DNA from: Elusimicrobiota bacterium
GTDB taxonomy: Bacteria; Elusimicrobiota; Elusimicrobia; UBA1565
DNA length: 58,134 bases
Assembly: GCA_043819795.1 (NCBI GenBank)
Contig: JBDREN010000205.1
Location: 1-58,134 of the forward strand
Direction of reading: 5' to 3'
Positions 7,201-25,151 of the stretch are shown here, one piece after another (within the stretch, counting starts at the first letter, position 1; each line of letters starts with the position of its first letter). The notes beneath the pieces were generated by a model. It made no database searches. It was not told where the DNA came from and was given only the letters and a program-made list of their open reading frames with translations. The position numbers and the translations under genes were made by a program.

Positions 7201-10200
7201 CCTGACCTTCGAGGAACTGGCCGTGGAGCCGCGCGGTGGCCTCCTGCATGCTCTCAAGCGCGGCCAGGTTCCGCTGGGTCAGACGCAGCGCTTCATCCAG
7301 CCGCGGCGGGACGGCGTCCGGCGGCGCCGGCTGAAGCGTAAATTCGGGCGCGGGCTCGGACGGCCGCGCCTCCGGGGGAAGCGCCTGAGCCCCGGGCCGA
7401 AGCGCGCCCGCCCGCGGAGCCTCCCTCACGGACGGCGCCGGAGGCGTCTTAGCCTTGGGGGCCACGTAGTTCGCCCCGGTGAGCGGGACGGTGAAAGCCG
7501 GCTTCTTGCGGCCGATCTTCTCCTCGGACCCGGCGCCCTCGTCCCATCTATCCAGGCGGACGGCGAAACCCATTGACGCGAGCCAGGCCAGAGAGCGCGC
7601 CAGGTCCGCTATGCCCGGACGCCTCCCGCCCGAGGCGTCCACGGACAACGCCCCGAATTCCCGGTCTCCCAGAATCGCGCCCACCAGTCCGGTGAGCCTT
7701 CGTCCCGGTCCGACCTCGAGGAAGCTCCGGACGCCGGAGGCGTACAGGTTCTCGACCTCCCGGACGAACTCCACCGGACGCCCAAGCTGGCTCGCCAGGA
7801 TATCCCGGGCCTTGTCCGCGCTTGCCGGATACTCTTCGGCCGTGCTGTTGGCGAAGACCGGGATCTTGCCCCGCGCGAAACCGACCTTCTTCAAAGCCTT
7901 CTCAAAAGGTTTCCGGGCGTCCGCGACCAGGGGGCTATGGAACGCGGCCGAGACCGGAAGCCGCTTGTTCCCGATGCCCTTGGCCGCGAGGATCTCGGCG
8001 GCCCGCTCGATCTCGCCGCCGGCTCCGGAGAGCACCGATTGGTTCGGGGCGTTCTTGTTCGCGATCACGAGGTCGAGCCTCGCTTCCCGCACGGCCCGCT
8101 CCACGGCATCCAAGGGGGCCTGCACGGCGAGCATCGCGCCGCGGTCCCCGCCGCCGTCCGCCATCAGCCGCCCTCTCAGATTGGAAAGCCGGTGAAGCGT
8201 CGCCGCGTCGAACCGGCCGGAGGCGCATAACGCGGGGAGCTCGCCGTAGCTGTGGCCCGCGACCGCGTCGGGCCGGACGTCGAACCCGTCGAGGACGCGC
8301 AGCGCGCCCAGACTCACGGCGCCGATGGCGGGCTGGGCCGCTTGGGTGGCTCGCAGAGCTTTCTCGTCCGCGGCCGCGGACTCGGCGTCGAACGTCGGAT
8401 GGGGATAGATGAGATCCGTCAGCCTCTTCCCCGGACCGTCCCCATCGCGAAAAGCTTCGTCCGCTTCGGCGAGAGCCTCGAGCATCCGCGGGAATTGGCA
8501 CGCCAGGTCGCGAAGCATTCCCACGTACTGCGATCCCTGTCCGGGGAAAAGGAACGCGAGCTTCCCCTCCCGCTTTCCCGAGCCAAAATACAGGCCTCCC
8601 GGAGTATCCCACCCCTTCCGGTCGCGCCGCGCGTTCAGCATGGCCCGGGCCTCGGCCGCGAGCTTGGCCAGGTCGGTCTTCCCTCGTTCCACCACGGCCA
8701 GCAAGCGGCAGGGTCGCGCGGGATCGAACGCCGAGCGGGAGCTCGCCGTCTTCCCGCGCAATTCGTCCCACGTAAGATCGCCCGAAAATCCCTCCAGCGC
8801 CGCGACGACGCCTTCTCCGGTCTCGCCGGAGAGGGCCAGGATCTGCACGTCCCCGTCCCAGTCGATCCCCCCCTTGGCCGACCTGTGCTCCTCGAGCACG
8901 CAGTGGAAATTGCTGCCGCCGAAGCCGAAAGAACTGACCGCCGCACGTCGCGGATGGTCCTTGGGGGGCAGCCAGGGCCGCTTCACCGTGTTCACGTAGA
9001 AGGGGGTGGCCCCGGGAGCGAGCGCCTCGTTCGGCTTCTCGACCTTGATGGTAGGAGGCAAGACCTTGTGCCGGAGAGCCAGCGCGGCCTTGATGATCCC
9101 GGCCACGCCGGCCGCGGCCTTGGTGTGCCCGATCATGGACTTGACCGAGCCGACCGCGCACCAGCGGCCCTCGCGCTTGGACGAACGGTACACCTCGCTC
9201 AGAGAGGCGATCTCCGCGGCGTCGCCGACCTTGGTCCCCGTGCCGTGGGCTTCCACCAGCTCGATAGTGTCCGGGGTGACGCCCGCCGCCCCGTAGGCGC
9301 TGCGCAGCGCCCGGCACTGGCCCTCGGCGCTCGGCTCGTAGATCGCCTTGCCCTTTCCGTCGCTGGACGCCCCGACTCCCGTGATCACGGCGTAGATCCG
9401 GTCGGCGTCGCGCTCGGCGTCCTCCAGGCGCTTGAGCACCAGGATCCCCAGGCCCTCGCCCAGGATCGTGCCGTCGCTTCGCGCGTCGAACGGCCTGGCG
9501 TCTCCGGTGGGCGAAAGCGCCGGCGTCTTGCTGAAACACATGTACATGAAGATGTCGTTGAAGGTGTCCGCTCCTCCGGTCACGACCATGTCCGCATGGC
9601 CCGCGGCGAGCTCCAAGCCGGCCAGGTGGATGGCGCTCAGCGAGCTGGCGCAGGCCGCGTCCACCACGCAGTTGGTGCCGCCCAGGTCCAGCCGGTTGGC
9701 GATGCGTCCCGCGACCACGTTGCCCAGCAGTCCGGGGAACGAGCTCTCCTTCCAGGGGACATAGGAATCCGATATCCGGCGGACGACGTCCTCGGCCACC
9801 GGCTCGCCCACGCCGGCGTCCTTGAGAGCCCGGCGCCATATCGGATGCCCGAGGCGCGCGCCCAGAGGTATCACCAGCTCTTGGGGGCCGGTCGCTCCGA
9901 GGATGACGCTCACGCGTCGCGAGTCGAAATCCCGTCCCGGTCCGTATCCGGCGTCCTCCAACGCGCGGCGCGCCGTCACCAGGCTCAGCAGCTGAGCCGT
10001 ATCCGTCGCTTCGATATCGCTCGGGGAGATGCCGAACTCGATGGGATTGAAGGCGTGCTCGGACAGGAACCCGCCGCGCTTGCCGTACGTCATGTCCGGC
10101 GCCTTGGGGTCGGAGTCGAAATAATCCCTCATGCTCCAATGGGTCTCGGGGATCTCGGTGATGGCGTCCACTCCGTTCTTGAGGTTGGCCCAATAAGCGC

Positions 10201-10309
10201 CCAGCCCGTCGGCTTTGGGAAAAAGGCAGGACATGCCCACGATCGCCAGCGGCCGGGCCTCGGGCTGTCCGGATCTCGCGGTTGCTCTCTTTTGTTTCTG
10301 GATTCTCAC
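4265..10309 (-). CDS. pfaA: PfaA/Pfa2-like iterative type I PKS/FAS (KS-AT-ACP-KR-DH), ~2014 aa
   Basis: KS DAACASS/HGTGT/GHTKAAAG; AT GHSYG and AFHS; one ACP LGIDSIKRVEIL; KR GGARGVT...YAMAN; PKS-type DH HPFLKSHVIGGRAVVP. Start moved from 10597 to GTG 10309 (GTGA overlap with the pfaD stop, GGAGGAG RBS ~8 nt upstream). Confidence 0.92.
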   Translation of the reverse strand: MRIQKQKRATARSGQPEARPLAIVGMSCLFPKADGLGAYWANLKNGVDAITEIPETHWSMRDYFDSDPKAPDMTYGKRGGFLSEHAFNPIEFGISPSDIEATDTAQLLSLVTARRALEDAGYGPGRDFDSRRVSVILGATGPQELVIPLGARLGHPIWRRALKDAGVGEPVAEDVVRRISDSYVPWKESSFPGLLGNVVAGRIANRLDLGGTNCVVDAACASSLSAIHLAGLELAAGHADMVVTGGADTFNDIFMYMCFSKTPALSPTGDARPFDARSDGTILGEGLGILVLKRLEDAERDADRIYAVITGVGASSDGKGKAIYEPSAEGQCRALRSAYGAAGVTPDTIELVEAHGTGTKVGDAAEIASLSEVYRSSKREGRWCAVGSVKSMIGHTKAAAGVAGIIKAALALRHKVLPPTIKVEKPNEALAPGATPFYVNTVKRPWLPPKDHPRRAAVSSFGFGGSNFHCVLEEHRSAKGGIDWDGDVQILALSGETGEGVVAALEGFSGDLTWDELRGKTASSRSAFDPARPCRLLAVVERGKTDLAKLAAEARAMLNARRDRKGWDTPGGLYFGSGKREGKLAFLFPGQGSQYVGMLRDLACQFPRMLEALAEADEAFRDGDGPGKRLTDLIYPHPTFDAESAAADEKALRATQAAQPAIGAVSLGALRVLDGFDVRPDAVAGHSYGELPALCASGRFDAATLHRLSNLRGRLMADGGGDRGAMLAVQAPLDAVERAVREARLDLVIANKNAPNQSVLSGAGGEIERAAEILAAKGIGNKRLPVSAAFHSPLVADARKPFEKALKKVGFARGKIPVFANSTAEEYPASADKARDILASQLGRPVEFVREVENLYASGVRSFLEVGPGRRLTGLVGAILGDREFGALSVDASGGRRPGIADLARSLAWLASMGFAVRLDRWDEGAGSEEKIGRKKPAFTVPLTGANYVAPKAKTPPAPSVREAPRAGALRPGAQALPPEARPSEPAPEFTLQPAPPDAVPPRLDEALRLTQRNLAALESMQEATARLHGQFLEGQEAALRTMRTLIEQQQGLFRPGGGPPAFHHAASPPPAPAAPPAVPASRVETAAPAPETSAEEASPQGGDPGIEEALLLVVSEKTGYPVEMLNLDMGLDSDLGIDSIKRVEILSALQGKFPEAPPVKPGQVGTIRTLRQIAEHLAAGAPAPARRANAAPPAVASAGALADGERGGAAAAAPVEFGEEAAGPAGISRSVLRTADLSARRRSVPIVGGSEIWVTEEDSGLSVRVADMLRSRGFGARVVARGEWASLGCPPRLGALVILAPAHAGHDWVKHALFMAKKAAAGLRASGKDKGAALVTVSRLDGAFGLRGLDPARDPVSGALAGLAKTAGHEWPEVSCKALDVDSGMGDMDAAARAIVEEMFLETPAEVGVNASGRCALELRRSDQAADASAPAPLRAGDVVLVTGGARGVTAQAALALARAFRPKLALLGRSPEPAPEPDWLASLDGAAEIKKALLANAGGKVSPKRLEEECLKVLANREILHNLALMRRAGAEVLYRSVDIRDRAAVRSALTEIRESQGPVRGVIHGAGVLADRLIEEKTEEQFDRVYGTKVLGLRTILDSLETADLKVLALFSSSSARFGRKGQVDYAMANEALNKIAQQQAKRLGGCRVVSFNWGPWEGGMVTPALRKMFEAEGVPMIPLEAGADRLAAELGSPSGPVEIVVMGERAASPGRGCSVAAAEPASGNGAGMKLAFERSLGLDEHPFLKSHVIGGRAVVPMAIIIEWLAHGAMHGNPGLNFHGFNDLRILKGVIQTPGQATRIRVLAGRAKKRDGMYLVATELRGAGPGGRGIVHSRGEIVLAERLPAAGSPSGELALEGFRGPTRRIYGDYLFHGSDFQGIRDIHGCAAEGIVAVASTAPSPSKWIAKPLRSRWIADPLALDGAFQMMIVWSFERHGAGSLPCYAARYRQFRPGFPKGAVRISARVTKDEASRVLADIEFLDPKGGLVARLEGYECVIDSSLNPAFKRKRLSR

Positions 10310-11976
10310 CCTAGATACTCCTCCAAGACCCGCGGCTCCAACGGACGGATCCGCGCCGCTTCGTCGGGAAGCGCCACTCCCTGATTGCGCAGCATGATCA
10401 AGCGCATCTGCACCGCGGCGCCGAAAAGGATGTTCATGGCCACCACGGAGACCTTTCGGCCGCGCCGATCGGCGAGGAAAGTCCCCTTGGTCCACTCGTT
10501 GAAGGCCCCCATCGCGGGCCCGCACCAGACCTGGTAGTCGATCCGGCGCGCGAGCTCTCCGGCGGTGGCCCACCGCGAGGCTCGCCCCAGGTACCACCGG
10601 AACACGAGCGCCATCCGGTGCTTGGGGTCGCGCTCGGCCAGGGAGACCTGCTCCGGATCGCGCTCATGAAAATACTCCCGCGTCCGCGCCCAGACATCAT
10701 CGAGCGAGGCGCGGAAAAGCTCGGCCTCAAGCCTCTTGCGCTCGGCCGCCGGGATCGCCTCGATGCCGTCGTAGGCGCGATACGTCTCGTAAAGCCGGGC
10801 GGCGCGCATCGCGAACATGGTCCCGCGCCTGAGGACCTGCACCTTCACGCCCATCTCGAACATGTCGGCGGCGGGAGCCATGGCCGTGTCGGCTTGGCCC
10901 GCCTGCGCCAGCATCTCCCGGACGGCGTCCGAGGTCCCGGCCTCCACGCAGGCCTGGTTCACGGAGCCGACCAGCACGTAAGCGGCGCCCATGGAGAAAG
11001 CCGCGGCCGCGGCCGCGGGCGTGCCGATACCCCCCGCCGCTCCCACGCGAAGCCGGGACTTGAAGCGGTGCCGCGCCTGCATCCGGTCGCGCAAGGCCGT
11101 CATGGTGGGCAGCAGGTCCACCAGGGAGCGGTTGTCCGTGTGTCCGGCCGAGTCGGCCTCGGCCGTGAGATCCTGCGCCATGGGGATCTCCTCGGCCATG
11201 CGCGCCTGCTCGGGGCTGATGCCGCCCGCGGCCGCGAGCTCCCGGAGCAGCTGCTGCGGCGGCGGCGCGAAGAACTTCGACGCCACCTCCACGCGGGACG
11301 CCTTGGCGATGATCCGGTTCGGCGCGACGACTTCGCCCGCGGCGTCGCGATGGATGCCGTGCACGCGATACCGCACGACCGGCAGCGTGAGGTCGAGGAA
11401 AGCCGCGGCCTCGACCAGGCGCACTCCTTTTCGGATATACAGGTCGACGATCCCGGCTTCGAGATCGGGCTCGGCGGGGCTATGGATCAGGTTGAAGCCG
11501 TAGGGAAGCGGCCCGAGCTCGCGGGAAATGCGGTCGATCGCGGCCTCCACCTCGGCCGGGGCGAGCCCGGCCGCTCCGAAGAACCCCAGGCACCCGCGAC
11601 GCCCCATCTCCGCCACGATCTCGACGGAGCTGATGCCGGTGGCCATGGAGCCCGAAAGATAGGGATAGCGGATCCCGTGGTCCGCGCACAACGAGGGGTC
11701 GCCCAGGTCCTCCAAGCCGCAGGCCGGCACATAGCCCACCACCGGCCAGCGTCCGTCCGCGCTCGCCCCCTTTTCTTCCTCCGAGGCGGCATCCGCGCCT
11801 AAAACCGCGGTCCCGCCCACGCCGAAAGCAAACTCGCCGTCGCTTTTCACCACGTATATAGGCCGGCGGATGTCGTGGAGGGCCTCGCTCATGCGAGCGG
11901 CGCCGGTCACGGGAGGACCGCCGGCGGACCTCCACCAGCCTAGTGCGCTCCGAGAATGGGTTGGAGAGAGAACCAT
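10306..11976 (-). CDS. pfaD: PfaD-family FMN-dependent trans-enoyl reductase
   Basis: GSMATGISS, FNLIHSP, AEADSAGHTDNR, GAAGGIGTP, APAADMFEMGVKVQVL, DYQVWCGPAMGAFNEW; coupled to the pfaA-like gene. Confidence 0.93.
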   Translation of the reverse strand: MVLSPTHSRSALGWWRSAGGPPVTGAARMSEALHDIRRPIYVVKSDGEFAFGVGGTAVLGADAASEEEKGASADGRWPVVGYVPACGLEDLGDPSLCADHGIRYPYLSGSMATGISSVEIVAEMGRRGCLGFFGAAGLAPAEVEAAIDRISRELGPLPYGFNLIHSPAEPDLEAGIVDLYIRKGVRLVEAAAFLDLTLPVVRYRVHGIHRDAAGEVVAPNRIIAKASRVEVASKFFAPPPQQLLRELAAAGGISPEQARMAEEIPMAQDLTAEADSAGHTDNRSLVDLLPTMTALRDRMQARHRFKSRLRVGAAGGIGTPAAAAAAFSMGAAYVLVGSVNQACVEAGTSDAVREMLAQAGQADTAMAPAADMFEMGVKVQVLRRGTMFAMRAARLYETYRAYDGIEAIPAAERKRLEAELFRASLDDVWARTREYFHERDPEQVSLAERDPKHRMALVFRWYLGRASRWATAGELARRIDYQVWCGPAMGAFNEWTKGTFLADRRGRKVSVVAMNILFGAAVQMRLIMLRNQGVALPDEAARIRPLEPRVLEEYLG

Positions 11977-12006
11977 GGCTTATAATATTAGGCGTTGCGA
12001 AACGCC

Positions 12007-12035
12007 ATGATATCAAGATAGTTCGTCCGTGACAA
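12007..12035 (-). promoter_or_regulatory. Putative sigma70 promoter of the pfa operon
   Basis: Minus strand TTGTCA (12035-12030), 17 bp, TATCAT (12012-12007) preceded by TGn (extended -10). Confidence 0.6.
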
Positions 12036-12050
12036 GGATAATCGAATGAT

Positions 12051-12106
12051 TTGACACCCCGTTGAAGGGCGTCTAGGTTGACATATTAGTTAGTGTGTGC
12101 TAACTT
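12051..12106 (+). promoter_or_regulatory. Tandem sigma70 promoters for tetR, with an operator-like inverted repeat
   Basis: TTGACA(12051)-17-TAGGTT and TTGACA(12078)-17-TAACTT(12101-12106); inverted repeat AGTTAG-N6-CTAACT (12088-12105) overlaps the second promoter. Confidence 0.65.
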
Positions 12107-12115
12107 ACCTACGTT

Positions 12116-12814
12116 ATGGCACCTACCACACGCCTTTCAGGCGATGAACGCCGCACAGCCATCGTCGAGGCCGTGCTCCCCCTGTTCGCGAAGAAAGGCT
12201 TCCACGGGGTCACCACTAGGGAGCTGGCGGAAGCGGCCGGCGTTTCCGAGGCGCTCCTTTTCAGGCATTTCCCCAGCAAGGAGTTCTTATACAAGGAAGT
12301 CCGGGACCAAGGCGGCAACGTCCATGAGAGCGCCTCGTTATTCAATCGGCTCCGGGACATCCCCCCCTCCACCGAAAAGCTCGTCCTCTTGACGCGCCTG
12401 CTCCTGCGGCGGATCATGACCCGCGGCGATGCGACGTTCCCCCGCCTTCTTCTGAACAGCCTACTCGAAGACGGACATCTAGCGCGGACATCGCTCAAGA
12501 GCTATATGAGCCGGTGGCTCGGGCCGTTCACCCAGGCGCTCGATGCGGCCAGGGAAGCCGGCGATCTCGAAGATATCGGAGGCCATGACGGCCTGGGGCT
12601 CTGGTTCTCGCATCATCTGGCCATGGCGCTCGTGTTCATGGGGCTTCCGGGAAAATCCGCGGTGGACTACGGAACGGCCCACGAGGCTCTGGTCGAGCAA
12701 GCGGCGCGCTTCTGCCTGCGGGGACTAGGACTCAAAGAAGAGGCTATCCGCAATTGCGGAGATCCGGCGAAGGCGGCGGCCGTCGAGTACGAGGCCTCGT
12801 CATCGGATTGGTAG
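12116..12814 (+). CDS. TetR/AcrR-family transcriptional regulator
   Basis: N-terminal HTH: FAKKGFHGVTTRELAEAAGVSEALLFRHFPSKE; divergent from pfaD. Confidence 0.93.
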   Translation: MAPTTRLSGDERRTAIVEAVLPLFAKKGFHGVTTRELAEAAGVSEALLFRHFPSKEFLYKEVRDQGGNVHESASLFNRLRDIPPSTEKLVLLTRLLLRRIMTRGDATFPRLLLNSLLEDGHLARTSLKSYMSRWLGPFTQALDAAREAGDLEDIGGHDGLGLWFSHHLAMALVFMGLPGKSAVDYGTAHEALVEQAARFCLRGLGLKEEAIRNCGDPAKAAAVEYEASSSDW

Positions 12815-13669
12815 GTGGACGGACATCCCGCGCATCACGACCTCTGCATGGGATCAAGGAAACCCGAGAAAGACATCCGGCAAGGCGACGCGGGCCCGGC
12901 TCGCTGGTCCGCCCCGCCGCGCCGGCTCCGCCTGAAGCCCCGCGAGGTCCACGTCTGGCGCGCGCCCCTGGACGTGGACGACGGGACCGTGGCGCGGCTG
13001 CGGGAAACTCTCGCCCCCGACGAGCGTTCCCGCGCGAGCCGCCTCCGCCGGGAGGTCGGCGCGAAGAGATTCCTCGTGGCGCGCGCCGTCTTGAGAGCGA
13101 TCCTCGCCCGATACGCGGGATCGAGTCCCGAATCCCTGGCTTTTCGCTACACCCGCAACGGCAAGCCGGAGCTGGCGTCCCATGGCCGGCGCGCGCCCAT
13201 CGCGTTCAGCGTGGCCCATTCCGGGGACAGAGCGCTTTTCGCGGTGACCGCCGGGCCCGCGATCGGGGTGGACATCGAGCGCGTGCGCCGCAAACTGGAC
13301 TTTGAAGAGATCGTGCGCCGCCACTTCTCAACCGCCGAGATCAAGACGCTGCGCGGCCTGCCGGACGACCGGAGGCGCGAGGCGTTCTTCGTGTACTGGA
13401 CCCGCAAGGAAGCCGTCTTGAAAGCCACGGGCGAGGGTCTAACCTATCCGCTCGACCGCGTCGAAGTCCCGTGGCTCCCCGGAAAACCTCCCGCTTCGAT
13501 CCGCTCGGGCATCCATCCCCCCGGAGCTCCCCGTTGGACCATCGTCGACCTCCGCCCTTACGCCGGTTTCGTCGGGGCGCTGGCCTTCCCCGGCCGCCGC
13601 ATGGAGCTTCGACGCTACAGCTATAGGCACTCCCCCCGGAGCTGTCCGCGCGGGCCCGAAATACGATAA
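12815..13669 (+). CDS. Sfp/PfaE-type 4'-phosphopantetheinyl transferase
   Basis: NGKP, FSVAHSG, IGVDIE, WTRKEAVLKATGEG. Start may instead be ATG 12848. Confidence 0.92.
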   Translation: MDGHPAHHDLCMGSRKPEKDIRQGDAGPARWSAPPRRLRLKPREVHVWRAPLDVDDGTVARLRETLAPDERSRASRLRREVGAKRFLVARAVLRAILARYAGSSPESLAFRYTRNGKPELASHGRRAPIAFSVAHSGDRALFAVTAGPAIGVDIERVRRKLDFEEIVRRHFSTAEIKTLRGLPDDRRREAFFVYWTRKEAVLKATGEGLTYPLDRVEVPWLPGKPPASIRSGIHPPGAPRWTIVDLRPYAGFVGALAFPGRRMELRRYSYRHSPRSCPRGPEIR

Positions 13670-14686: not shown

Positions 14687-16195
14687 CTACCGCGGCAGCG
14701 CCTCCTTGTCCCAGCCCTGCTCGCGCTCCCGCGCCTTGCGGTCCCACTCAGGGACCAGGGTCTTCAAGAAACGGCCCTTCTCCTTCTTCAGCTTCGCGAC
14801 GTCGAGGCCTATGAAGGTTTGGGCCTTTTCCTTGGTGGAGATGTCCGGCATGGGCACCGGTCCCGGATGGCCGCGGCGAGCCAGGATCCTGGACAACAGC
14901 AAGCGCGCCTCCTGGGCCTTGTCGATCGAGGTCGCGAGGATGCGGGAGACCTCGAGCGGCGCGTGGAAGGACGCGCCGTGGCTCGCGGCCGCGTAATCCC
15001 AGCGCCACTGGGCGTGGCGTATCAGCCTGAGCACGGGCCTCATCTCCGCCTCGCCGGCTCCGACGTCCCAGGCCTTCTTCGCCTCGATGTGCGCCTTGAC
15101 GATCAGGTCCTCGGCCTTGTCCCGGGTGGCGATGTTCTTGTCCTGCCGCTCGTAGACGTTCTTCCTGAACTCATCCTCGCTCTCCCGGTGGCAGACCTGG
15201 CAGGTGGTGGCGATGTTGTTGAGCGGGCTCTGGATCTGGTGGTCCGAGAACTTCACGCCGCCCGCGCTCTTGTAGGGCATGTGGCAGTCGGCGCAGGCGA
15301 GCCCGCGCTGGGCGTGGATGCCGGCCTGGAACAGCTCCCAGCCCGGGTGCTGGGCCTTGAGCATGGGGGCCCGGCTCAGGGCGTGGGTCCAGTCCTTGAA
15401 CTCCCTCTCGTCGTAGTACTTCTCCATGGCCTCGACGGTCGTGCCGTCGTCCCAGGGCAAGGTGAGGCGGTTGCCCTTCCCCTTGAAGTAGTACTCCACG
15501 TGGCACTGCGCGCAGACCAGAGCGCGCATCTCCTGGTGATCGGCCTTCTTGATGTCTTCGCCGCGCCGCTCGAAGGCCTCGGCGAGCGCGGGCCGCGAGA
15601 TCCGGAGGTTCATGGTCTTGGGGTCGTGGCAGTCCGCGCAGCCGATCGCGTTCACGATCTCGTGCCCGCGGGCGGCCCATTTGTCTTCGTAGAACGCCGC
15701 CGGGCCGATCCGGCCCATCACGCGGGGGACATCGGGGCTCTTGCAGGTCCAGCACGTATTGGGCATGGGGCCGTCGTCCGGCCCCGTCGGCGCTCCGGTC
15801 CTCAGAGTGTTCCGGATGTCGGTCACGGCGTAGTGGTGCCCCCGGCCCTGGTTGTAGTCCTTGGAGAAGCCGTAGCCCGCCCACAAGACGACGAGCCTGG
15901 GGTCCACCTCGAGCATATCGATCATCGCGCTTCCGTTGTGCTTGCTCCGGAAAGACGTCTCCCGGGTCTTGAGGTAGGTCTCGTATTCCCGGGGGAAGTG
16001 CTTGCCCCAAACGGCGCTTCTCGGCTCCCATTCGGATATATCGGTCGCGGGCGCGTAGGCGATGAGCGCCTCGGTCCGCCTCTCCATGATAGAGGCCGCG
16101 AACAACCCGATCAGGAACACCAGCCCCATGGCCGCGGCGGCCAGCAGCCAGCCCAGCCAGGGATTCTTTTTCGCGAATTCGGTGATGGATCTCAT
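14687..16195 (-). CDS. nrfA: Ammonia-forming cytochrome c nitrite reductase, pentaheme catalytic subunit
   Basis: CWTCK (CxxCK) plus four CxxCH (CADCH, CAQCH, CADCH, CQVCH); KAQH motif; QWRWDY and SHGASFHAP; N-terminal TM; AGGAGA RBS. Confidence 0.96.
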   Translation of the reverse strand: MRSITEFAKKNPWLGWLLAAAAMGLVFLIGLFAASIMERRTEALIAYAPATDISEWEPRSAVWGKHFPREYETYLKTRETSFRSKHNGSAMIDMLEVDPRLVVLWAGYGFSKDYNQGRGHHYAVTDIRNTLRTGAPTGPDDGPMPNTCWTCKSPDVPRVMGRIGPAAFYEDKWAARGHEIVNAIGCADCHDPKTMNLRISRPALAEAFERRGEDIKKADHQEMRALVCAQCHVEYYFKGKGNRLTLPWDDGTTVEAMEKYYDEREFKDWTHALSRAPMLKAQHPGWELFQAGIHAQRGLACADCHMPYKSAGGVKFSDHQIQSPLNNIATTCQVCHRESEDEFRKNVYERQDKNIATRDKAEDLIVKAHIEAKKAWDVGAGEAEMRPVLRLIRHAQWRWDYAAASHGASFHAPLEVSRILATSIDKAQEARLLLSRILARRGHPGPVPMPDISTKEKAQTFIGLDVAKLKKEKGRFLKTLVPEWDRKAREREQGWDKEALPR

Positions 16196-16218
16196 ATCTT
16201 TCTCCTAGACATCGTTCA

Positions 16219-16848
16219 TCATCGGGGCCCGGACTCCGGAGCGGCCGGCCCTCCCCCGTCCCGACCGGCGGCTCCCCGGACCCAGTCCGGGATCATGCTC
16301 CCCAAGATCGGGACATGCGCGTTCGGCGCCGAAGAAAGGCTCGCGGTCCGGCCGTGCGGAGTGTGGCGGTGGCAGTCCCAGCAGAGCCTCTCGCCGGGCC
16401 CGCCCGCAGCTCCCGCGCGCACCCTGAACAGAAGCTCCCCGTGGCAGCGCCGGCAGTTGGCCTGCACCACGCGCCGGCCCGCCTCGCGGATCCTGATGAC
16501 CTGGGGCTCCCGTCTCAGCGTGAAGATCGCCGAGTGCCTGAGCCCGTCCATGGACTTGAAGAAGTATTGATGCGCGAGATTGTCCTGCGGCACGTGGCAG
16601 TCGTTGCAGCCGGCCCGGTCGCGGTGGGCGCTGTGCAGCCACGTGGCGTACTGCGGCGCCATGATGTGGCAGTTCACGCAGGTATTCGGGTCATCCGACA
16701 GGTAGGATCCCGCGTTCGAGATGTGGACGATGAAGAGTCCGAGCCCGCCGCCGATGCCCAGCAGGACCATGGCGGGCAGACGCCAGCCGTCGGGCAGCCG
16801 CAGAAGATCGTAAGCCCGGCCCGCGGCCGAACGAAGCTCGTCAATCAT
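16219..16848 (-). CDS. nrfH: Tetraheme quinol dehydrogenase, nitrite reductase small subunit
   Basis: N-terminal TM; SYLSDDPNTCVNCHIM, CNDCHVP, CRRCH, CWDCH; directly upstream of nrfA. Confidence 0.94.
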   Translation of the reverse strand: MIDELRSAAGRAYDLLRLPDGWRLPAMVLLGIGGGLGLFIVHISNAGSYLSDDPNTCVNCHIMAPQYATWLHSAHRDRAGCNDCHVPQDNLAHQYFFKSMDGLRHSAIFTLRREPQVIRIREAGRRVVQANCRRCHGELLFRVRAGAAGGPGERLCWDCHRHTPHGRTASLSSAPNAHVPILGSMIPDWVRGAAGRDGGGPAAPESGPR

Positions 16849-16894
16849 CAGTCCCGGCCTCCCCCCGCTTCCGCGGCATACCGTGCGTTCATGC

Positions 16895-18145
16895 TCAGAA
16901 GTCGAGCACCGCCTGCAGGAACGCCCAGTCCATGTCCTTACCGAAGCCCCTGTTCTTGGCGAAGTTCCCCCGGAAGAACCGCGAGTACCCGAACCAGAGC
17001 TTCAGGGCACCGCGCACCGTGGCCTTGGCATGCAGGTCCAGCTCGTTGCCGACCGTCCTGCCGGACGCGCCGGCCGTGTCCCGCGCAAGCTGGGTCCCGC
17101 CGGCCGAGTACCATCCGTCCGTGGCCTGGGCCAGGCGGAAGTGGTGGAAATCGGCCTGGAGGTTCCATCCCTCCCCCGGCTTGGCCGAGACGCCGGCCTT
17201 GATCGCGTGCCCGTTCTTCCAGGAGAACAGGTCCGCGTAGCCCTGCAAGGCATGGCCGAACGGGAAGATGGGATCGAACGTCCCGTCCCGGGCGTCGGTG
17301 GGGTTCCTGTCGCCCGACGCGAGGTCGTACTCCACGCCCACGCGCGGACTCCCGGCCGCCTCGAAGGTATAGCCCGCGGTCGCGGCCAGCGCCCAGGCGC
17401 GGAGCTCGTCGCCCGCCTTGCGCCCGAACTGCCAGGCGGCCTCGCCGGAGTAGTCCGCGCCGCCCGCCTTCCCCTTCAGGCGCGCGCCGGCCGTGCGCTG
17501 GCTGAGATTGCCCTGCCTGACGCCCTGCTCGTCGAAGTAGCTGCCATCGCCTTCGTCGCGGGCGAGCACGTAGAGATCGAACTCGTGGCCGGGCACCGCC
17601 CGGCAGGACGCGTAGAGACCGGAGAACACGTCGTCCTGGCGGGTCGTCCGGTTCTCATCCACCACGGTCGCGAAAAGGTCCGCCCGCCACGACTCTTGCT
17701 CCGCGCGCAGCCGCACCCCGTCCCAGGTCCTTCCGTTGTTCGACCAATCGAGCGGGCTGATCAGCCTCTGGTCGCCGTACTTGAGCTCCTGGCGGCCCGC
17801 CCGCAGGCTGAGCGGCAGGCCCCAGAGGTCCAAGACGTCCAGGAACCCCTGGTGCAGGCCGAAGTCGTCGTCGGTGTCCGTCGGCGTGTCGCTGCCGGCG
17901 GTGTGGACATGCTGCATCTGCACGTAGGCCCGCATGCCCTCGGCCGGCTCGGCCCGGGTCCAGAACCGGGTCCTGAAGAGCAGCATGTCCTCGCCCCGGG
18001 CGGCAACGTAGTTTGCCGTAGGATTGCGGGTCTCCCCGCGCGCCCGGAACTGCCCCCCGAACTCCAGGGACTCCAACGCCCCGGCGAGCGCGCCCGCGGG
18101 CGGAAGCGCGCCAGCGAGCACGACACCCATCAAGAAACTCCTCAC
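16895..18145 (-). CDS. Alginate-export-family outer membrane beta-barrel
   Basis: Signal peptide after GTG 18145 (GGAGG RBS); GRQELKYGDQRLISPLDWSNNGRTWDG, ASGD, TFDPIFP; C-terminal Phe. Confidence 0.8.
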   Translation of the reverse strand: MRSFLMGVVLAGALPPAGALAGALESLEFGGQFRARGETRNPTANYVAARGEDMLLFRTRFWTRAEPAEGMRAYVQMQHVHTAGSDTPTDTDDDFGLHQGFLDVLDLWGLPLSLRAGRQELKYGDQRLISPLDWSNNGRTWDGVRLRAEQESWRADLFATVVDENRTTRQDDVFSGLYASCRAVPGHEFDLYVLARDEGDGSYFDEQGVRQGNLSQRTAGARLKGKAGGADYSGEAAWQFGRKAGDELRAWALAATAGYTFEAAGSPRVGVEYDLASGDRNPTDARDGTFDPIFPFGHALQGYADLFSWKNGHAIKAGVSAKPGEGWNLQADFHHFRLAQATDGWYSAGGTQLARDTAGASGRTVGNELDLHAKATVRGALKLWFGYSRFFRGNFAKNRGFGKDMDWAFLQAVLDF

Positions 18146-18536
18146 TCTTTGCCTCCTTCCGGGTCCCGCGGATCCGTCCCGGCCCCGGGAACGTCCCTCA
18201 AGCCGACTCGGCCGAGGGGATGCCCGAGAAGCCTCTCGGCCTCGAGCGCCTGCTCGTGGGCGGAGCAGACCGGTCCGGGGCGCGCGCGGCCCTGCCCGCC
18301 GGGCACGCCATCCCCCAGATCGCGCACCGCGCTGTCTTGGAGAGTCATATCGACCGGACATCCGGACTCGATTATCCGGGATTCATGCCTCAATATCCGC
18401 TCGCGGGGAAACCGCTCGCCGCACGACTTCATCGTATATACCCGCCTGCACGCGGGCTGTCAAGAGGGCTGAAAACGCTTCCTCACGCGCGAAACCTGTA
18501 TAATGTCGGAGCTGGCCTCGCGGCCGCTGACGCCCG

Positions 18537-18728
18537 ATGAACGACAAGGAATCCTCGCCGCCTAATAGATTCTTGGGCGCGATCTGCCACCACTGTCCGC
18601 TCTGCAGGTTCGGCCGGAAACGGCCGGGATCGCTGATCGGCCGGCTGCTTCATCACCCGCTCCACGCCGAGAACTGCCCCTTCTGGAAGGCGGAGAAGGA
18701 CCTCTACGGGCAGAGCGACGACGGCTGA
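18537..18728 (+). CDS. Small Cys/His-rich hypothetical protein (63 aa)
   Basis: CHHCPLC...HHPLH...CPFW; TATAAT at 18499-18504 upstream; protein-like composition. Confidence 0.6.
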   Translation: MNDKESSPPNRFLGAICHHCPLCRFGRKRPGSLIGRLLHHPLHAENCPFWKAEKDLYGQSDDG

Positions 18729-18770
18729 CGACCGGCCGGGCGGCGCGGCGATAAGCGTTCCTGGCCATGT

Positions 18771-18800
18771 TTGACGCTATCGGTGCGGAAAGAGTATAAT
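18771..18800 (+). promoter_or_regulatory. Near-consensus sigma70 promoter of the carbamoyltransferase operon
   Basis: TTGACG (18771-18776), 18 bp, TATAAT (18795-18800); AAGGAGG RBS before ATG 18887. Confidence 0.8.
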
Positions 18801-18886
18801 CGCATGAAGGCGGCGTTTCCAAAAAACCCTGCCCCGCAAACAAGATATAAGAAATCGCCACGAACTCTGTCTCAAGGAGGCAAGCC

Positions 18887-19963
18887 ATGAAAACCACTTC
18901 GTTCCGAGGCAAAGACTACATCGACGCGGAGATTGATTTCAACAAGGAGGAATGGGACACTTTGATCGATGTCGCTCTGCATCTCAAGCGCGGCGTAGCC
19001 ATGGGCGAGGACCAGACGCACATCCTGAAGAACAAGACGCTCTACATGATGTTCTTCAACCAGTCCTTGCGCACGCGGAGCACCTTCGACGTGGGCATCC
19101 AACAGCTCGGCGGCTTCGCCTGCCACCTGGACCCGGGCAAGACCTACACCCCCGCGCGCAAGGGCTACGAGATCCCCTACAAGACCGAGCGCATCTGCGA
19201 CGTGGCCCAGGTCCTGGACCGGACCGGCGACGCGCTCGCCATCCGCATGTACGGCGAGCCGGCGCAGTGGATCTACGGCTTCGCCAACGCCACCATCAAG
19301 GAGTTCGCGCACTACTCCCAGATCCCGGTCATCAACATGGAGTGCTGCAAGTACCACCCGACGCAGTCGCTCGCCGACATGATCACGATCAAGGAGAAGT
19401 TCGGCGACTTCAAGAAGAAGAAGTTCGTGATGAGCTGGGCCTACTCCGGCTCCACCCACAAGCCTTTCGCCGTGCCGCAGAGCCTGGTCCTCGCGCCCTC
19501 CAAGATGGGCATGGACGTGGTCTTCGCCCGGCCCAAGGGCTTCGAGCTCGACCCCGCCGTCATCAATACCTGCAAGAAGTTCGCCAAGGCGAGCGGCGGC
19601 TCGTTCGCGGAGACCGACGACATGGAGGCGGCCTTCGAGAACGCCGACGTCGTCTATCCCAAGTGCTGGGGCGCGATGGACTACTTCGCCCAGGTCAACG
19701 AGAAGGGCAAGATCGTCAAGAAGGAGAACCTGAAGGGCATGAAGAAGCTCTTCGACAAGAACAAGCACTGGATCTGCGACTCCAAGAAGATGAAGCTCAT
19801 CAAGAAGAGCGGCATCTACATGCACTGCCTGCCGGCCGACCGCGACATGGAGGTGACCGACGAGGTCATCGACGGGCCGCAGAGCGTGGTTTTCGACGAG
19901 GCGGAGAACCGGCTCCACGCCCACAAGTCGATCATGGCGCTCACCATGGGAGGCAAGCTCTGA
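18887..19963 (+). CDS. Carbamoyltransferase 1 (N-acyl-ornithine/YgeW-like clade)
   Basis: FFNQSLRTR, HPTQSLAD, SWAYSGSTHKPFAVPQS, YPKCW, HCLPADR, EAENRLH. Confidence 0.9.
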   Translation: MKTTSFRGKDYIDAEIDFNKEEWDTLIDVALHLKRGVAMGEDQTHILKNKTLYMMFFNQSLRTRSTFDVGIQQLGGFACHLDPGKTYTPARKGYEIPYKTERICDVAQVLDRTGDALAIRMYGEPAQWIYGFANATIKEFAHYSQIPVINMECCKYHPTQSLADMITIKEKFGDFKKKKFVMSWAYSGSTHKPFAVPQSLVLAPSKMGMDVVFARPKGFELDPAVINTCKKFAKASGGSFAETDDMEAAFENADVVYPKCWGAMDYFAQVNEKGKIVKKENLKGMKKLFDKNKHWICDSKKMKLIKKSGIYMHCLPADRDMEVTDEVIDGPQSVVFDEAENRLHAHKSIMALTMGGKL

Positions 19964-21009
19964 TGGCGACCGCGACAGCCAAGAAGATCAACCTGAAGGG
20001 CAAGCATCTGCTCTGCACCCAGGACTGGTCCATCGAGGAGATCGAGGCCGTCCTGAAGCTAGCCGTCGAGATGAAGAAGGACCGCTTCGGGGACAAGTAC
20101 ACGAGCATCCTCAAGCACAAGACCTTCTTCATGTTCTTCTACAACCCCTCGGTCCGGACGCGGCAGTCCTTTGAGGCCGCGGCCACGGAGCTGGGCGCCC
20201 ATGCCCAGTTCCTGGAGCCCAAGGGCATGCGGCTGAAGACCAGCACGAGCGCCGGGGAGACCACCGAGGACGCGGCCAAGGTCATGAGCCGCTACGCCTG
20301 CGGCCTAGGCATCCGCATCCTCGAGGACAAGGTCAACGCCTACGGCGAGGGCCACAAGCTCATGGAGGAGTACTGCGAGTACGGCGCCATCCCGGTCGTC
20401 AGCATGGCGCACGACAAGTTCCATCCCTGCCAGGGGCTGGCGGACGTGCAGGGCGCGCGGGAGCACCTGGGGGACATCAAGGGCAAGAAGCTCCTGCAGG
20501 TCTGGGGGCACGGCGCCCTGGCGCGGTCGTGGTGCTCGGTCCAGGAGAGCATCCTCATCAACTCCCGGCTGGGCATGGACGTGACCCTGGCCTACCCCGA
20601 AGGCTACGACCTGGACCCCGAGGTGATCGAGAACGTGAAGAAGAACTGCGCCGAGACCGGCCGCAAGTTTGAGATCACCCACGACCCGGTCAAGTGCTAC
20701 GAGGGCGCGGACATCGTCTACTCGCGCAACTGGATGAGCCCCAAGGCCTACGGCCCCAACGGCTTCGACAAGAAGGGCGACGTGGAGCAGGCGCTCAAGC
20801 TCTCGCAGTGGATCACCGACGCCCAGAAGATGAAGCTGACCAACGACGCCCTCTACACGCACCCCATGCCCATCGACCGCGGGCACGAGGTGACCGACGA
20901 GGTGGCCAGCGGGCCGCGCTCCATCATCTACGACGTGGCCGAGAACCGGCTGCACGCGCAGAAGGCGATCATGGCGCTCACCATGAGCGGCTTCGAGGTC
21001 GAGCTGTAG
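19963..21009 (+). CDS. Carbamoyltransferase 2 (divergent OTCase/AOTCase-like), 348 aa
   Basis: True start ATG 19963 in a TGATG overlap (ORF-track start 18952 is a spurious extension); FYNPSVRTR, HPCQGLAD, WGHGALARSW, YSRNW, HPMP, AENRLH. Confidence 0.9.
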   Translation: MATATAKKINLKGKHLLCTQDWSIEEIEAVLKLAVEMKKDRFGDKYTSILKHKTFFMFFYNPSVRTRQSFEAAATELGAHAQFLEPKGMRLKTSTSAGETTEDAAKVMSRYACGLGIRILEDKVNAYGEGHKLMEEYCEYGAIPVVSMAHDKFHPCQGLADVQGAREHLGDIKGKKLLQVWGHGALARSWCSVQESILINSRLGMDVTLAYPEGYDLDPEVIENVKKNCAETGRKFEITHDPVKCYEGADIVYSRNWMSPKAYGPNGFDKKGDVEQALKLSQWITDAQKMKLTNDALYTHPMPIDRGHEVTDEVASGPRSIIYDVAENRLHAQKAIMALTMSGFEVEL

Positions 21010-21034
21010 TGCCGAGGCCGGGGGAGGCATCATC

Positions 21035-21979
21035 ATGAGCAAGCTCGCCGTCATCGCGGTGGGAGGCAACTCCCTCATCACCGACAAGGAGCACAAGACC
21101 GTGCCGGACCAGTACGAGGCCGCCGCGCAGACCTGCAAGCACATGGCCGACCTCATCGAGCAGGGTTACGACGTCGTCATCACCCACGGCAACGGACCGC
21201 AGGTGGGCTTCATCCTGCGCCGCGCCGAGCTCGCGAGCAAGGAGCTCCACATGGTCCCCCTGGATTCCTGCGGGGCGGACACCCAGGGCGCCATCGGCTA
21301 CCACATCCAGCGGGCCCTCCACAACGAGTTCAAGGCGCGCGGGATGGACAAGAAGGCCGCCACCGTGGTGACCCAGGTCCTCGTGGACAAGAACGACCCG
21401 TCCTTCAAAAACCCGACGAAGCCGATCGGATCCTTCATGGACAAGGAGGACGCGGAGAAGCACCGGAAGGAGGACGGCTGGGACGTGGTCGAGGACGCGG
21501 GCCGGGGCTGGCGCCGCGTGGTGGCCTCTCCCATCCCGAAGAAGATCGTGGAGTTCGACGCGATCGAGAACCTGGTCAAAAGCGGCTTCGTGGTGGTCGC
21601 GGTGGGAGGCGGCGGCATCCCCGTCGTCGAGGACGCCGGCGGCATCCTCACGGGCGCGGCCGCGGTCATCGACAAGGACTTCGCCTCCAGCCTCCTGGCG
21701 CGCCAGCTGAAGGCGGACATCTTCATCATATCGACCGCGGTCGAGAAGGTCGTCCTGAACTTCGGCAAGCCCGACGCCAAGCCGATCGACAAGATGATGG
21801 TCTCCGAGGCCAAGAAATACATCAAGGAGGGCCACTTCAAGCCCGGCAGCATGCTGCCCAAGGTCACGGCCGTCATCGAGTTCCTTGAGGGCGGGGGCAA
21901 TAAGGCCATCATCACGGACCCGCGGAACCTCAAGAAGGCCGTGGCTGGAGAGACCGGCACGCACGTCTATCCCGGCTAA
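21035..21979 (+). CDS. arcC: Carbamate kinase
   Basis: IAVGGNS, THGNGPQVG, PTKPIG, WRRVVASP, GGGGIP, VIDKD, GSMLPK; GGAGG RBS. Confidence 0.95.
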   Translation: MSKLAVIAVGGNSLITDKEHKTVPDQYEAAAQTCKHMADLIEQGYDVVITHGNGPQVGFILRRAELASKELHMVPLDSCGADTQGAIGYHIQRALHNEFKARGMDKKAATVVTQVLVDKNDPSFKNPTKPIGSFMDKEDAEKHRKEDGWDVVEDAGRGWRRVVASPIPKKIVEFDAIENLVKSGFVVVAVGGGGIPVVEDAGGILTGAAAVIDKDFASSLLARQLKADIFIISTAVEKVVLNFGKPDAKPIDKMMVSEAKKYIKEGHFKPGSMLPKVTAVIEFLEGGGNKAIITDPRNLKKAVAGETGTHVYPG

Positions 21980-22179
21980 GAGCACCTAAGCCCGGCCAGG
22001 CCGTTCACTAAGCGCCGCCCGGGGCCGCCGTCACGGCGGTCCCGGGCGCGTCCGTTCCCGCCCCGGGGCGAGGGAAAGACAACAGCACTCTTGCCGCAGA
22101 GCTCCCGATAATTCGAAGGTGTAAGCGCCGTAAGGCGAGATTGGCCATGGGATCAGTCGAGCCAAGCCGGCGCGTCGCG

Positions 22180-24773: not shown

Positions 24774-25151
24774 ATGAGGATCCTCCTGGCGGAAGACGAC
24801 CGGACCATGAGCCGCATCGCCGCGCTCAGCCTGAGCAAGAAGGGCGGCCATGAGGTCGTCTGCGTGGGAGACGGGGCGGAGGCCGTCCGGCGGGCGGCCG
24901 ACCTCCGGCCCGACCTGATCCTCCTCGACGACCAGATGCCCGTGATGGCCGGCCCCGAGGCTTGCCGCCGCCTCAAAGCCGATGACCGGACGAAAGGGAT
25001 CCCGGTGATATTCCTGACGGCGCGGTCCGGGGAGGACGAGGCGCGCCTCTACCGCGACCTCGGCGCCGCGGGCATGATCCGCAAACCGTTCAACGCGGCG
25101 GGCCTGTCCGAGCGGGTCCGGGCCATTTTGTCGGAGAGCGGAGGCGGATAG
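24774..25151 (+). CDS. Single-domain (CheY-like) response regulator
   Basis: ILLAEDD, ILLDDQMP, FLTA, KPF. Confidence 0.9.
   Translation: MRILLAEDDRTMSRIAALSLSKKGGHEVVCVGDGAEAVRRAADLRPDLILLDDQMPVMAGPEACRRLKADDRTKGIPVIFLTARSGEDEARLYRDLGAAGMIRKPFNAAGLSERVRAILSESGGG

Follow-up and report, generated by a model that had tools for sequence, protein, structure and literature searches.

The 58,134-nucleotide stretch of Elusimicrobiota DNA analyzed here (the window; contig JBDREN010000205.1) carries on its forward strand a three-gene operon encoding two different transcarbamylases, designated TC-A (358 amino acids, positions 18887 to 19963) and TC-B (348 amino acids, 19963 to 21009), followed by a carbamate kinase of the arcC/YqeA type (314 amino acids, 21035 to 21979). 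Judged by their residues, both transcarbamylases are likely catalytically intact, and the operon likely encodes the ATP-yielding tail of reductive uric-acid breakdown. From the genes that accompany these enzymes, it is very probable that the operon acts in purine breakdown, and we see a slightly better than even chance that TC-A and TC-B perform two sequential phosphorolyses of 2,3-diureidopropionate (DUPA). An earlier note on this DNA had proposed a new ATP-yielding ureide pathway; the module is instead a modified form of the tail end of a known pathway, published in 2025. No description of a twin TC-A/TC-B pair was found in the open-access PMC and bioRxiv literature.

As given in two reports (bioRxiv 10.1101/2025.04.24.650524; PMC12507026), that pathway runs from urate through 2,8-dioxopurine, ureidomethylhydantoin, and DUPA to a mono-ureide, then to diaminopropionate and pyruvate. 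In its tail, YgeW uses phosphate to produce the mono-ureide, with ATP formed via YqeA, and YgeY and YgeX then yield diaminopropionate and pyruvate, respectively. SsnA is considered a robust marker of the pathway by Li et al. (PMC12507026). The reports by Liu et al. and Li et al. disagree on which ureido group YgeW cleaves first, and a commentary lists the point as open (Percudani, PMC12990295).

The carbamate kinase scores above the cut-offs of its family models (TIGR00746, 386 bits against 358; NF009007, 434 against 266), is 51% identical to Escherichia coli YqeA, and is the sole match to a carbamate kinase protein in the genome. TC-A and TC-B are 35.8% identical to each other and 31 to 33% identical to YgeW, and are shorter than YgeW by approximately 40 to 50 amino acids. 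Neither reaches the cut-off of any transcarbamylase family model: for YgeW (NF005538/TIGR03316, cut-offs 453/500), the scores are 173/160 bits for TC-A and 118/112 for TC-B; for ornithine transcarbamylase (OTCase; NF001986/TIGR00658, cut-off 306), 235 and 226; and for putrescine transcarbamylase (PTCase; TIGR04384, cut-off 500), 197 and 191. The best NCBIfam match of both is to N-acetylornithine transcarbamylase (AOTCase; NF003384), where 281.7 and 237.3 bits compare with a cut-off of 288 and with 402 bits for the enzyme from a relative's arg cluster. The public labels of these proteins read ornithine or N-acetylornithine carbamoyltransferase, and the closest named relatives of TC-B are labeled Elusimicrobia.

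In a quick IQ-TREE phylogeny of 96 rows (93 representatives of 258 sequences at an 82% identity threshold, with three added), TC-A and TC-B group with AOTCase and YgeW (support 95) and form two clades of their own (supports 98 and 100). A third clade joins YgeW with two short relatives, C and A2 (support 97), and the pseudo-ATCase/UGTCase branch, related to aspartate transcarbamylase (ATCase), lies apart, as do the true AOTCases from the arg clusters of relatives. This quick tree does not settle how TC-A, TC-B, AOTCase, and YgeW/C/A2 branch relative to one another, and no duplication order is claimed. Predicted structure models, used for fold comparison only, are confident (pLDDT 96.1 for TC-A and 96.5 for TC-B), and the closest solved fold for both is Xanthomonas AOTCase (PDB 3KZC/3M5C): for TC-A, Z is 44.5 with an rmsd of 1.5 Å over 324 aligned residues, compared with a Z of 39.3 for YgeW, and for TC-B, Z is 43.9 with 1.7 Å over 319 residues, compared with 37.4. 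TC-A and, probably, TC-B fall within the knotted AOTCase/YgeW group, each as a conserved clade of its own, and neither is a member of the YgeW or the AOTCase family. The earlier note had likened TC-A to the knotted YgeW/AOTCase clade from its loop and HPTQ motif, and the tree, the loop motif, and the fold match all bear this out.

Active-site residues were compared with the tables of Shi et al. 2015 (PMC4581275). The carbamoyl-phosphate site is whole in TC-A (S60, R62, T63, R120, H157, Q160, HCLP at 313 to 316, R342) and in TC-B (S63, R65, T66, R118, H154, Q157, R329). For the second substrate, TC-A combines YgeW-like S189, K192, K259, and D318, the equivalents of S200, K203, K270, and D334 of YgeW, with an AOTCase-like E152 and long 80s and 120s loops; TC-B has A, R, R, and D at the same four positions, and its own signature (A149, R188, R255, HPMP at 300 to 303). 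Thus E144 and K252 of AOTCase are present in TC-A as E152 and K259 and replaced in TC-B by A149 and R255. In YgeW numbering, YgeW and clades C and A2 have Q98, Q160, K/R203, K270, and D334; the TC-A clade has E160, K203, and K270 in 60 of 60 sequences, with D334 as in YgeW and a long aromatic 80s loop as in AOTCase; and the TC-B clade has A160, R203, and R270 in 44 of 44 and HPMP in 42 of 44, the other two being gapped. A deeper sister group of TC-B retains A160 and R270, and adjoins a TC-A-type gene in all five loci found. The short 80s loop of YgeW with Gln98 and Gln160 is replaced by a long loop with Glu in TC-A and by a distinct loop with Ala in TC-B. The extra terminal helices and extended 240s loop of YgeW are likewise missing, the proteins measuring 358 and 348 amino acids against 396, with YgeW-model matches that stop near residues 335 to 359. 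TC-A carries the proline-rich WAYS..KP..VPQ loop and long 120s loop of the knotted group; TC-B groups with the knotted enzymes in the tree and has similar loop lengths, its loop prolines being lost. TC-A probably works like YgeW.

Note that the short YgeW-type enzymes of clades C and A2 (approximately 325 to 337 amino acids; loci L049–L059, L080–L086, and L200–L219) keep the YgeW site residues, yet those scanned score below the YgeW family cut-off and would receive OTCase or AOTCase labels. Here and below, numbers prefixed G, C, and L denote genomes (G000 being that of the window), contigs of the window's own genome, and loci, respectively.

The fold and model matches to AOTCase, the Glu and Lys that TC-A shares with it, and the public labels would all fit an ordinary arginine-related role, in which the pair is an anabolic AOTCase and OTCase or a catabolic OTCase and PTCase fed by arginine or agmatine deiminase. 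We regard this as highly improbable. Beyond the missed cut-offs, the DxxxSMG loop of OTCase is absent, the position reading YPKCWG in TC-A and YSRNWM in TC-B, and AOTCase is an anabolic enzyme of arg clusters, whereas TC-A and TC-B accompany a carbamate kinase. The window's own genome (4.99 Mb, 90.3% complete) encodes three transcarbamylases and one carbamate kinase, and the third transcarbamylase is a separate, true OTCase (417.8 bits against the cut-off of 306). At that completeness, no match was found to the arginine deiminase family (PF02274), nor, by tblastn with the queries of a relative, to ArgG, ArgH, ArgB, an ArgE-like protein, or CarB; among 51 TC-B genomes of Anaerolineae, the arginine deiminase family gave a single, partial match. 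The earlier note had reported neither an arginine or agmatine deiminase nor an antiporter. This holds for the neighboring genes inspected and, for arginine deiminase, genome-wide, but an agmatine deiminase gene is present on another contig, where it adjoins its own N-carbamoylputrescine-amidase-like gene. This lack of arginine deiminase and of matches to the arg genes agrees with the note, which had named ordinary OTCase or AOTCase action with such genes elsewhere as the case against it. ATCase was also not found in the genome with two queries, and its lack together with that of the carbamoyl-phosphate synthetase large subunit may reflect either an incomplete assembly or a salvage-only metabolism.

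The true OTCase gene sits between a gene for a 445-amino-acid protein and a transporter gene, and in genome G090 the gene for the 445-amino-acid protein lies near those for an aminotransferase, a carbamate kinase, and an OTCase. The 445-amino-acid protein, which we take to be GTPase/cyclic-diphosphoglycerate-synthase-like, has no NCBIfam match at the thresholds used, and the locus (C219:11383–15081, L403; with L087 and L003:1193–2518) may mark a route of arginine or citrulline catabolism without arginine deiminase.

Candidate genes for the steps of purine breakdown before the tail are present on other contigs of the window's genome. HyuA on C102 exceeds its cut-off (448 against 393); an Xdh-like enzyme on C121, which occurs with 8-oxoguanine deaminase, is 42.5% identical to E. 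coli XdhD and scores below family cut-offs; there is a xanthine-permease-like gene; and a run of genes on C226 encodes a ThrC-like protein, a CysK-like pyridoxal phosphate (PLP) enzyme, a PydA/UacX-like reductase, and SsnA. The ThrC-like and CysK-like (approximately 485 amino acids) enzymes (C226:18956–21687, L402) recur in related purine-cluster loci. Neither YgeX nor a YgeY-like M20 hydrolase was found in the genome, where three M20 matches were not matched by YgeY queries. The co-occurrence with purine genes that the earlier note had suggested examining was thus found for ssnA and hyuA among twin genomes, as detailed next, and not for ygeX and ygeY in the window's own genome.

Among 30 related loci, 26 contain TC-B and four contain A2, and the TC-B loci derive from Chloroflexota, Deltaproteobacteria/Myxococcota, Eisenbacteria, Hodarchaeota, and Elusimicrobia. 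Their recurrent neighbors are genes for carbamate kinase (22 of 30), GntR (8), ThrC-like proteins (7), SsnA-family amidohydrolases (6), and CysK-like proteins (6), together with YgfK/PydA-like genes and BMP-type transporters; at L331, the entire operon comprises TC-A, TC-B, carbamate kinase, PydA-like, and SsnA genes. A TC-A-type gene, even if unlinked, is present in 23 of the 26 TC-B genomes, the other three being small assemblies. Within the phylum of the window, TC-B occurs in seven of 151 genomes, all seven of which have an A-type gene; 11 others have one C-type enzyme instead, with YgeY above cut-off in ten of these. Each of the three same-family genomes sampled likewise pairs a single C-type enzyme with YgeY and lacks TC-B. 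In Anaerolineae (201 genomes, all incomplete assemblies), 46 of 51 TC-B genomes also carry TC-A. The pairing is therefore conserved, as the earlier note had required of it.

SsnA exceeds its cut-off in 44 of the 51 Anaerolineae TC-B genomes compared with eight of 38 genomes that lack these enzymes. In the phylum of the window, the corresponding counts are six of six for the other twin genomes and 11 of 11 for those with a C-type enzyme, compared with four of 34 for genomes with neither TC-B nor a C-type enzyme. Among 24 further TC-B genomes, 16 exceed the cut-off, seven have lower or split matches, and one has none. HyuA exceeds its cut-off in all five twin genomes tested. Because SsnA and HyuA accompany the pair, we assign it with high confidence to purine breakdown, and the link to anaerobic purine breakdown drawn in the earlier note is upheld by way of these two proteins; the genomes are related rather than independent, so Fisher p-values for such co-occurrence are overstated.

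In three loci (L187, L188, and L189 of genomes G296, G228, and G373), a second purine-type cluster is present, comprising a TC-A relative, an IclR-like gene, a divergent SsnA, a split PydA, and an XdhD-like gene, back to back with HyuA. Genes beside it are presumably succinyl-CoA-synthetase-, PrpF-, and isopropylmalate-dehydratase-like, and the cluster possibly serves another N-heterocycle.

The distribution of the tail enzymes in Anaerolineae fits two slots with interchangeable parts. In the 201 genomes, TC-A-clade enzymes occur in 51, short YgeW-type A2 enzymes in 110, TC-B in 51, pseudo-ATCases in 44, and a YgeY ortholog in 73. TC-A and TC-B coincide in 46 genomes; of the ten exceptions, two (G304 and G223) are fragments at contig edges that would add two pairs. 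TC-B occurs in none of the 110 A2 genomes, none of the 73 YgeY-ortholog genomes, and none of the 44 pseudo-ATCase genomes. Within the A2 genomes, pseudo-ATCase and the YgeY ortholog are anticorrelated (both in 15, pseudo-ATCase only in 28, YgeY ortholog only in 55, neither in 12), a parallel case in which a second transcarbamylase displaces the hydrolase YgeY. Exactly one of TC-B, pseudo-ATCase, and the YgeY ortholog is present in 129 of the 158 genomes with an A-type enzyme; the last two occur together in 15, and none of the three in 14. Orthologs of YgeY were called at E ≤ 1e-105 to one Anaerolineales YgeY, and this rule missed another YgeY subgroup, present in G195 and G237, so that these two genomes were counted under neither. 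Individual genomes show exchanges of parts: G286 combines TC-A and carbamate kinase with a PF07969 (UacY-family) hydrolase and a ThrC-like gene and lacks TC-B; in G358, TC-A occurs alongside pseudo-ATCases, again without TC-B; and G196, G238, and G307 have TC-B near a separate YgeY-like M20 gene, with no TC-A among their PF00185 matches. The two M20 hydrolases of TC-B-only genomes that were scanned both exceed the NF009555 YgeY cut-off.

The highly conserved pseudo-ATCases (L028:6984–7937; L160–L179; 67 to 94% identity) adjoin the short YgeW-type enzyme in Anaerolineales and score above the cut-off for ATCase, although a separate ATCase is also encoded in most of these genomes. This pair is likely a second, independent two-transcarbamylase solution. 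Pseudo-ATCases/UGTCase, as described by Barba et al. 2013 (PMC4016543), resemble the present case in two ways: a transcarbamylase takes the place of a hydrolase acting on ureides, with carbamate kinase encoded nearby, and in Nocardioides the pseudo-ATCase adjoins a ygeW homologue, which gives two adjacent transcarbamylases in a purine cluster; a pseudo-ATCase-type gene is present in 43 of the 110 A2 genomes here. They differ in belonging to the ATCase branch, whereas TC-B probably falls in the knotted group on the OTCase side and co-occurs with them in none of 51 genomes.

Near-strict co-occurrence (46 of 51 Anaerolineae genomes and seven of seven in the phylum), the stop/start overlap of the two genes in the window, and replacement by the pair, genome by genome, of a single A2-, C-, or YgeW-type enzyme would also be expected if TC-A and TC-B formed a heterotrimer or mixed oligomer for a single YgeW step, with an M20 paralog performing the second. 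The trimer is the basic transcarbamylase unit and its active sites lie between subunits, although YgeW, AOTCase, SOTCase, and PTCase are all homotrimers, according to a review (PMC4581275). A hetero-oligomer, which the earlier note had offered as its alternative, is disfavored and in our estimate quite unlikely: each protein keeps a full carbamoyl-phosphate site, and partners are swapped. In four genomes of one genus, TC-B is 92 to 96% identical, but the partner in G028 belongs to a different clade and is only 39 to 40% identical to the others. The two histories are weakly congruent, identity to the window's TC-A being no predictor of identity to its TC-B (rho 0.16, p 0.38, 33 genomes; rho 0.29 over all pairs). 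Each gene also occurs alone (TC-B without TC-A in four genomes, TC-A without TC-B in G286 and G358), and in many genomes the two genes sit on different contigs, while in G305 they are separated by 25 kb.

The statement that TC-B genomes lack YgeY fails when based on TIGR03526 alone, as 34 of 48 and 160 of 201 genomes exceed its cut-off; the exclusion holds only within Anaerolineae and after ortholog and paralog have been separated by tree and protein queries. The tree-placed M20 proteins of Anaerolineae TC-B genomes fall outside the group that holds E. coli YgeY and are thus paralogs, and similar-scoring M20 proteins occur in nine of 30 genomes that lack both SsnA and these enzymes, and the paralog in A2 genomes as well. 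This Anaerolineae-wide paralog (L220–L239) usually lies behind genes for glycosyltransferases and sugar-transferase-like proteins and is present where SsnA is absent, so that the YgeY model over-calls here.

Several observations nevertheless weigh against two sequential phosphorolyses. An M20 protein above the TIGR03526 YgeY cut-off is kept in 46 of the 51 Anaerolineae TC-B genomes, the paralog often adjoins TC-A/TC-B, and the true hydrolase of the second step could be this paralog. Of 23 TC-B genomes outside Chloroflexota, 15 have a YgeY match above cut-off and eight, including that of the window, do not, and 12 of the 15 matches sit in the YgeY-containing group (with support of only 88 in one tree). 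G156 and G165 hold true YgeW and YgeY besides the twin, and at L322 a YgeY-ortholog-like gene directly follows TC-A. The exclusion counts come from related genomes and are not independent events, and the exchange with UacY is a single case. Among metagenome loci of the TC-A clade (best 80 of 569 matches), a TC-B-type gene was present in the fetched DNA of only nine of 36, many contigs being short. Finally, the only SsnA gene of the window's genome (C226:24270–25585; L289, L290) is interrupted near 25080 by a frameshift of one base, leaving two frames that score 341.7 and 194.8 bits against a cut-off of 444, which may be an assembly error or may mean that the pathway in this organism is broken (a pseudogene).

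The retained M20 proteins, the G156 and G165 genomes, and the two PLP enzymes and PydA-like reductase that travel with the module could instead be explained by parallel ureide enzymes, each acting on its own substrate (the enantiomers of DUPA, or DUPA and the β-ureidopropionate of pyrimidine reduction) to remove a single carbamoyl group, with a YgeY-like M20 or a PLP enzyme finishing and one ATP formed per ring. We consider this unlikely. It does not account for the absence of the YgeY ortholog and pseudo-ATCase from all 51 TC-B genomes, or for TC-B being found only with TC-A-type, never with A2-type, enzymes; it leaves the window's genome and G105, which have no YgeY-like enzyme, without a finishing hydrolase; and the two PLP enzymes accompany single-enzyme C-type clusters too. 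Sequential removal of two carbamoyl groups from a di-ureido substrate, as the earlier note had envisaged, is thus the best explanation of the gene distributions, tempered by the many twin genomes that keep a YgeY-like hydrolase.

Under sequential phosphorolysis, enzymes encoded elsewhere (the Xdh-like protein of C121, the PydA/UacX-like reductase and SsnA of C226, and HyuA of C102) would make DUPA. TC-B would then take the 2-(α)-ureido group, most simply first, converting DUPA and phosphate to albizziin, and TC-A would take the 3-(side-chain) ureido group, converting albizziin to 2,3-diaminopropionate. Both carbamoyl phosphates would pass to carbamate kinase, yielding two ATP per purine at the tail of the pathway instead of one, and the ThrC-like and/or CysK-like PLP enzymes of C226 would replace YgeX. 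ATCase-type enzymes act on α-amino groups. Since, in addition, Clostridioides difficile UacY yields albizziin and hence cuts the 2-ureido group (PMC12507026), TC-B would likely fill the slot for the 2-ureido group and TC-A that for the 3-ureido group. If the steps are indeed sequential, we moderately favor this regiochemistry. As a guess, the Glu that TC-A has in place of the YgeW Gln may bind the free α-ammonium of albizziin, in which case TC-B would perform the first step.

The predicted tail resembles the YgeW, YqeA, YgeY, and YgeX system of E. coli and Clostridium sporogenes in having a knotted-group transcarbamylase beside carbamate kinase and in co-occurring with SsnA, HyuA, YgfK/UacX, and Xdh. 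It differs in having two transcarbamylases below the YgeW cut-off with E or A for Q160, in the PLP enzymes found in place of YgeY and YgeX in the window's genome, and in the second ATP predicted. The UacY and YgeY variant of C. difficile (PMC12507026) similarly indicates that a tail slot can be filled by unrelated enzymes, and a UacY-family gene is present in the TC-A operon of G286. However, UacY and YgeY are both hydrolases and yield no ATP, whereas both steps are predicted to be phosphorolytic here.

The operon layout matches that given in the earlier note, which had described a near-consensus promoter, two TGATG-coupled but different transcarbamylases, arcC, and strong codon bias. A putative sigma-70-type promoter-like site, TTGACG-18-TATAAT (18771 to 18800, forward strand), lies 86 bases upstream of TC-A and agrees with 11 of 12 consensus bases; 74 sites with at least 11 of 12 occur in the 4.99-Mb genome, or approximately 0.06 per 4 kb. 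A Shine-Dalgarno-like sequence precedes each gene (AAGGAGG at 18874 to 18880, forward strand, for TC-A). The TGATG stop/start overlap between TC-A and TC-B is not kept in relatives, most related pairs having short gaps or an inserted gene. By an Nc-type index over 2408 crudely called genes, only 2.5%, 0.1%, and 1.2% are more biased in codon use than TC-A, TC-B, and carbamate kinase, respectively. Between arcC and the convergent downstream genes, an 18-pair GC-rich hairpin is predicted by RNA folding (22012 to 22051, no strand assigned); it is a possible terminator, although its forward strand lacks a U-tract and a terminator scan gave no flag there. Rfam gave no match in 18300 to 18900 at E up to 1 and none in the window at gathering score. 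A second perfect TATAAT in the intergenic region (18498 to 18503) was not flagged by the promoter scan, and Rfam had no match there.

The neighbors are unrelated and on the opposite strand. Upstream and divergent from the operon are NrfA/NrfH-type cytochrome c nitrite reductase genes and an alginate-export-family porin gene (14687 to 18361), preceded by a polyketide block resembling a polyunsaturated fatty acid synthase (4265 to 13669), which includes a large polyketide synthase, a PfaD-like protein, a TetR-like regulator, and a phosphopantetheinyl transferase. Downstream are response regulator and kinase genes. In Anaerolineae, a flavin-reductase-like gene (PF01613) is repeatedly found inside or beside the twin operon (L195:8295–8852, L235, L193, L238, and L190).

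It was only in 2025 that the anaerobic uric-acid pathway was worked out, and the choice among its variants, between flux and energy yield, is relevant to uricolytic probiotics according to Li et al. (PMC12507026). If the proposal is correct, one transcarbamylase per ureido group would mean two new substrate specificities in a well-studied enzyme family, and the ATP yield at the tail would rise from one to two where gut bacteria make one. Many ornithine and N-acetylornithine carbamoyltransferase labels in environmental genomes would be corrected, TC-B alone occurring in 51 of the 201 Anaerolineae. The two proteins would also provide clean enzymes for settling the regiochemistry, and the gene exchanges would be relevant to the dispute over the order in which YgeW and YgeY cleave the ureido groups. 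We put forward only tentatively, as a possibility, the fuller picture of a wholly phosphorolytic tail, in which TC-B would found a new knotted-fold family of N-α-carbamoyl transcarbamylases and TC-A would be an albizziin transcarbamylase, together doubling what uncultured members of the Chloroflexota, Elusimicrobiota, Asgard archaea, and other groups gain from uric acid in substrate-level ATP, with the same solution having arisen independently through pseudo-ATCase.

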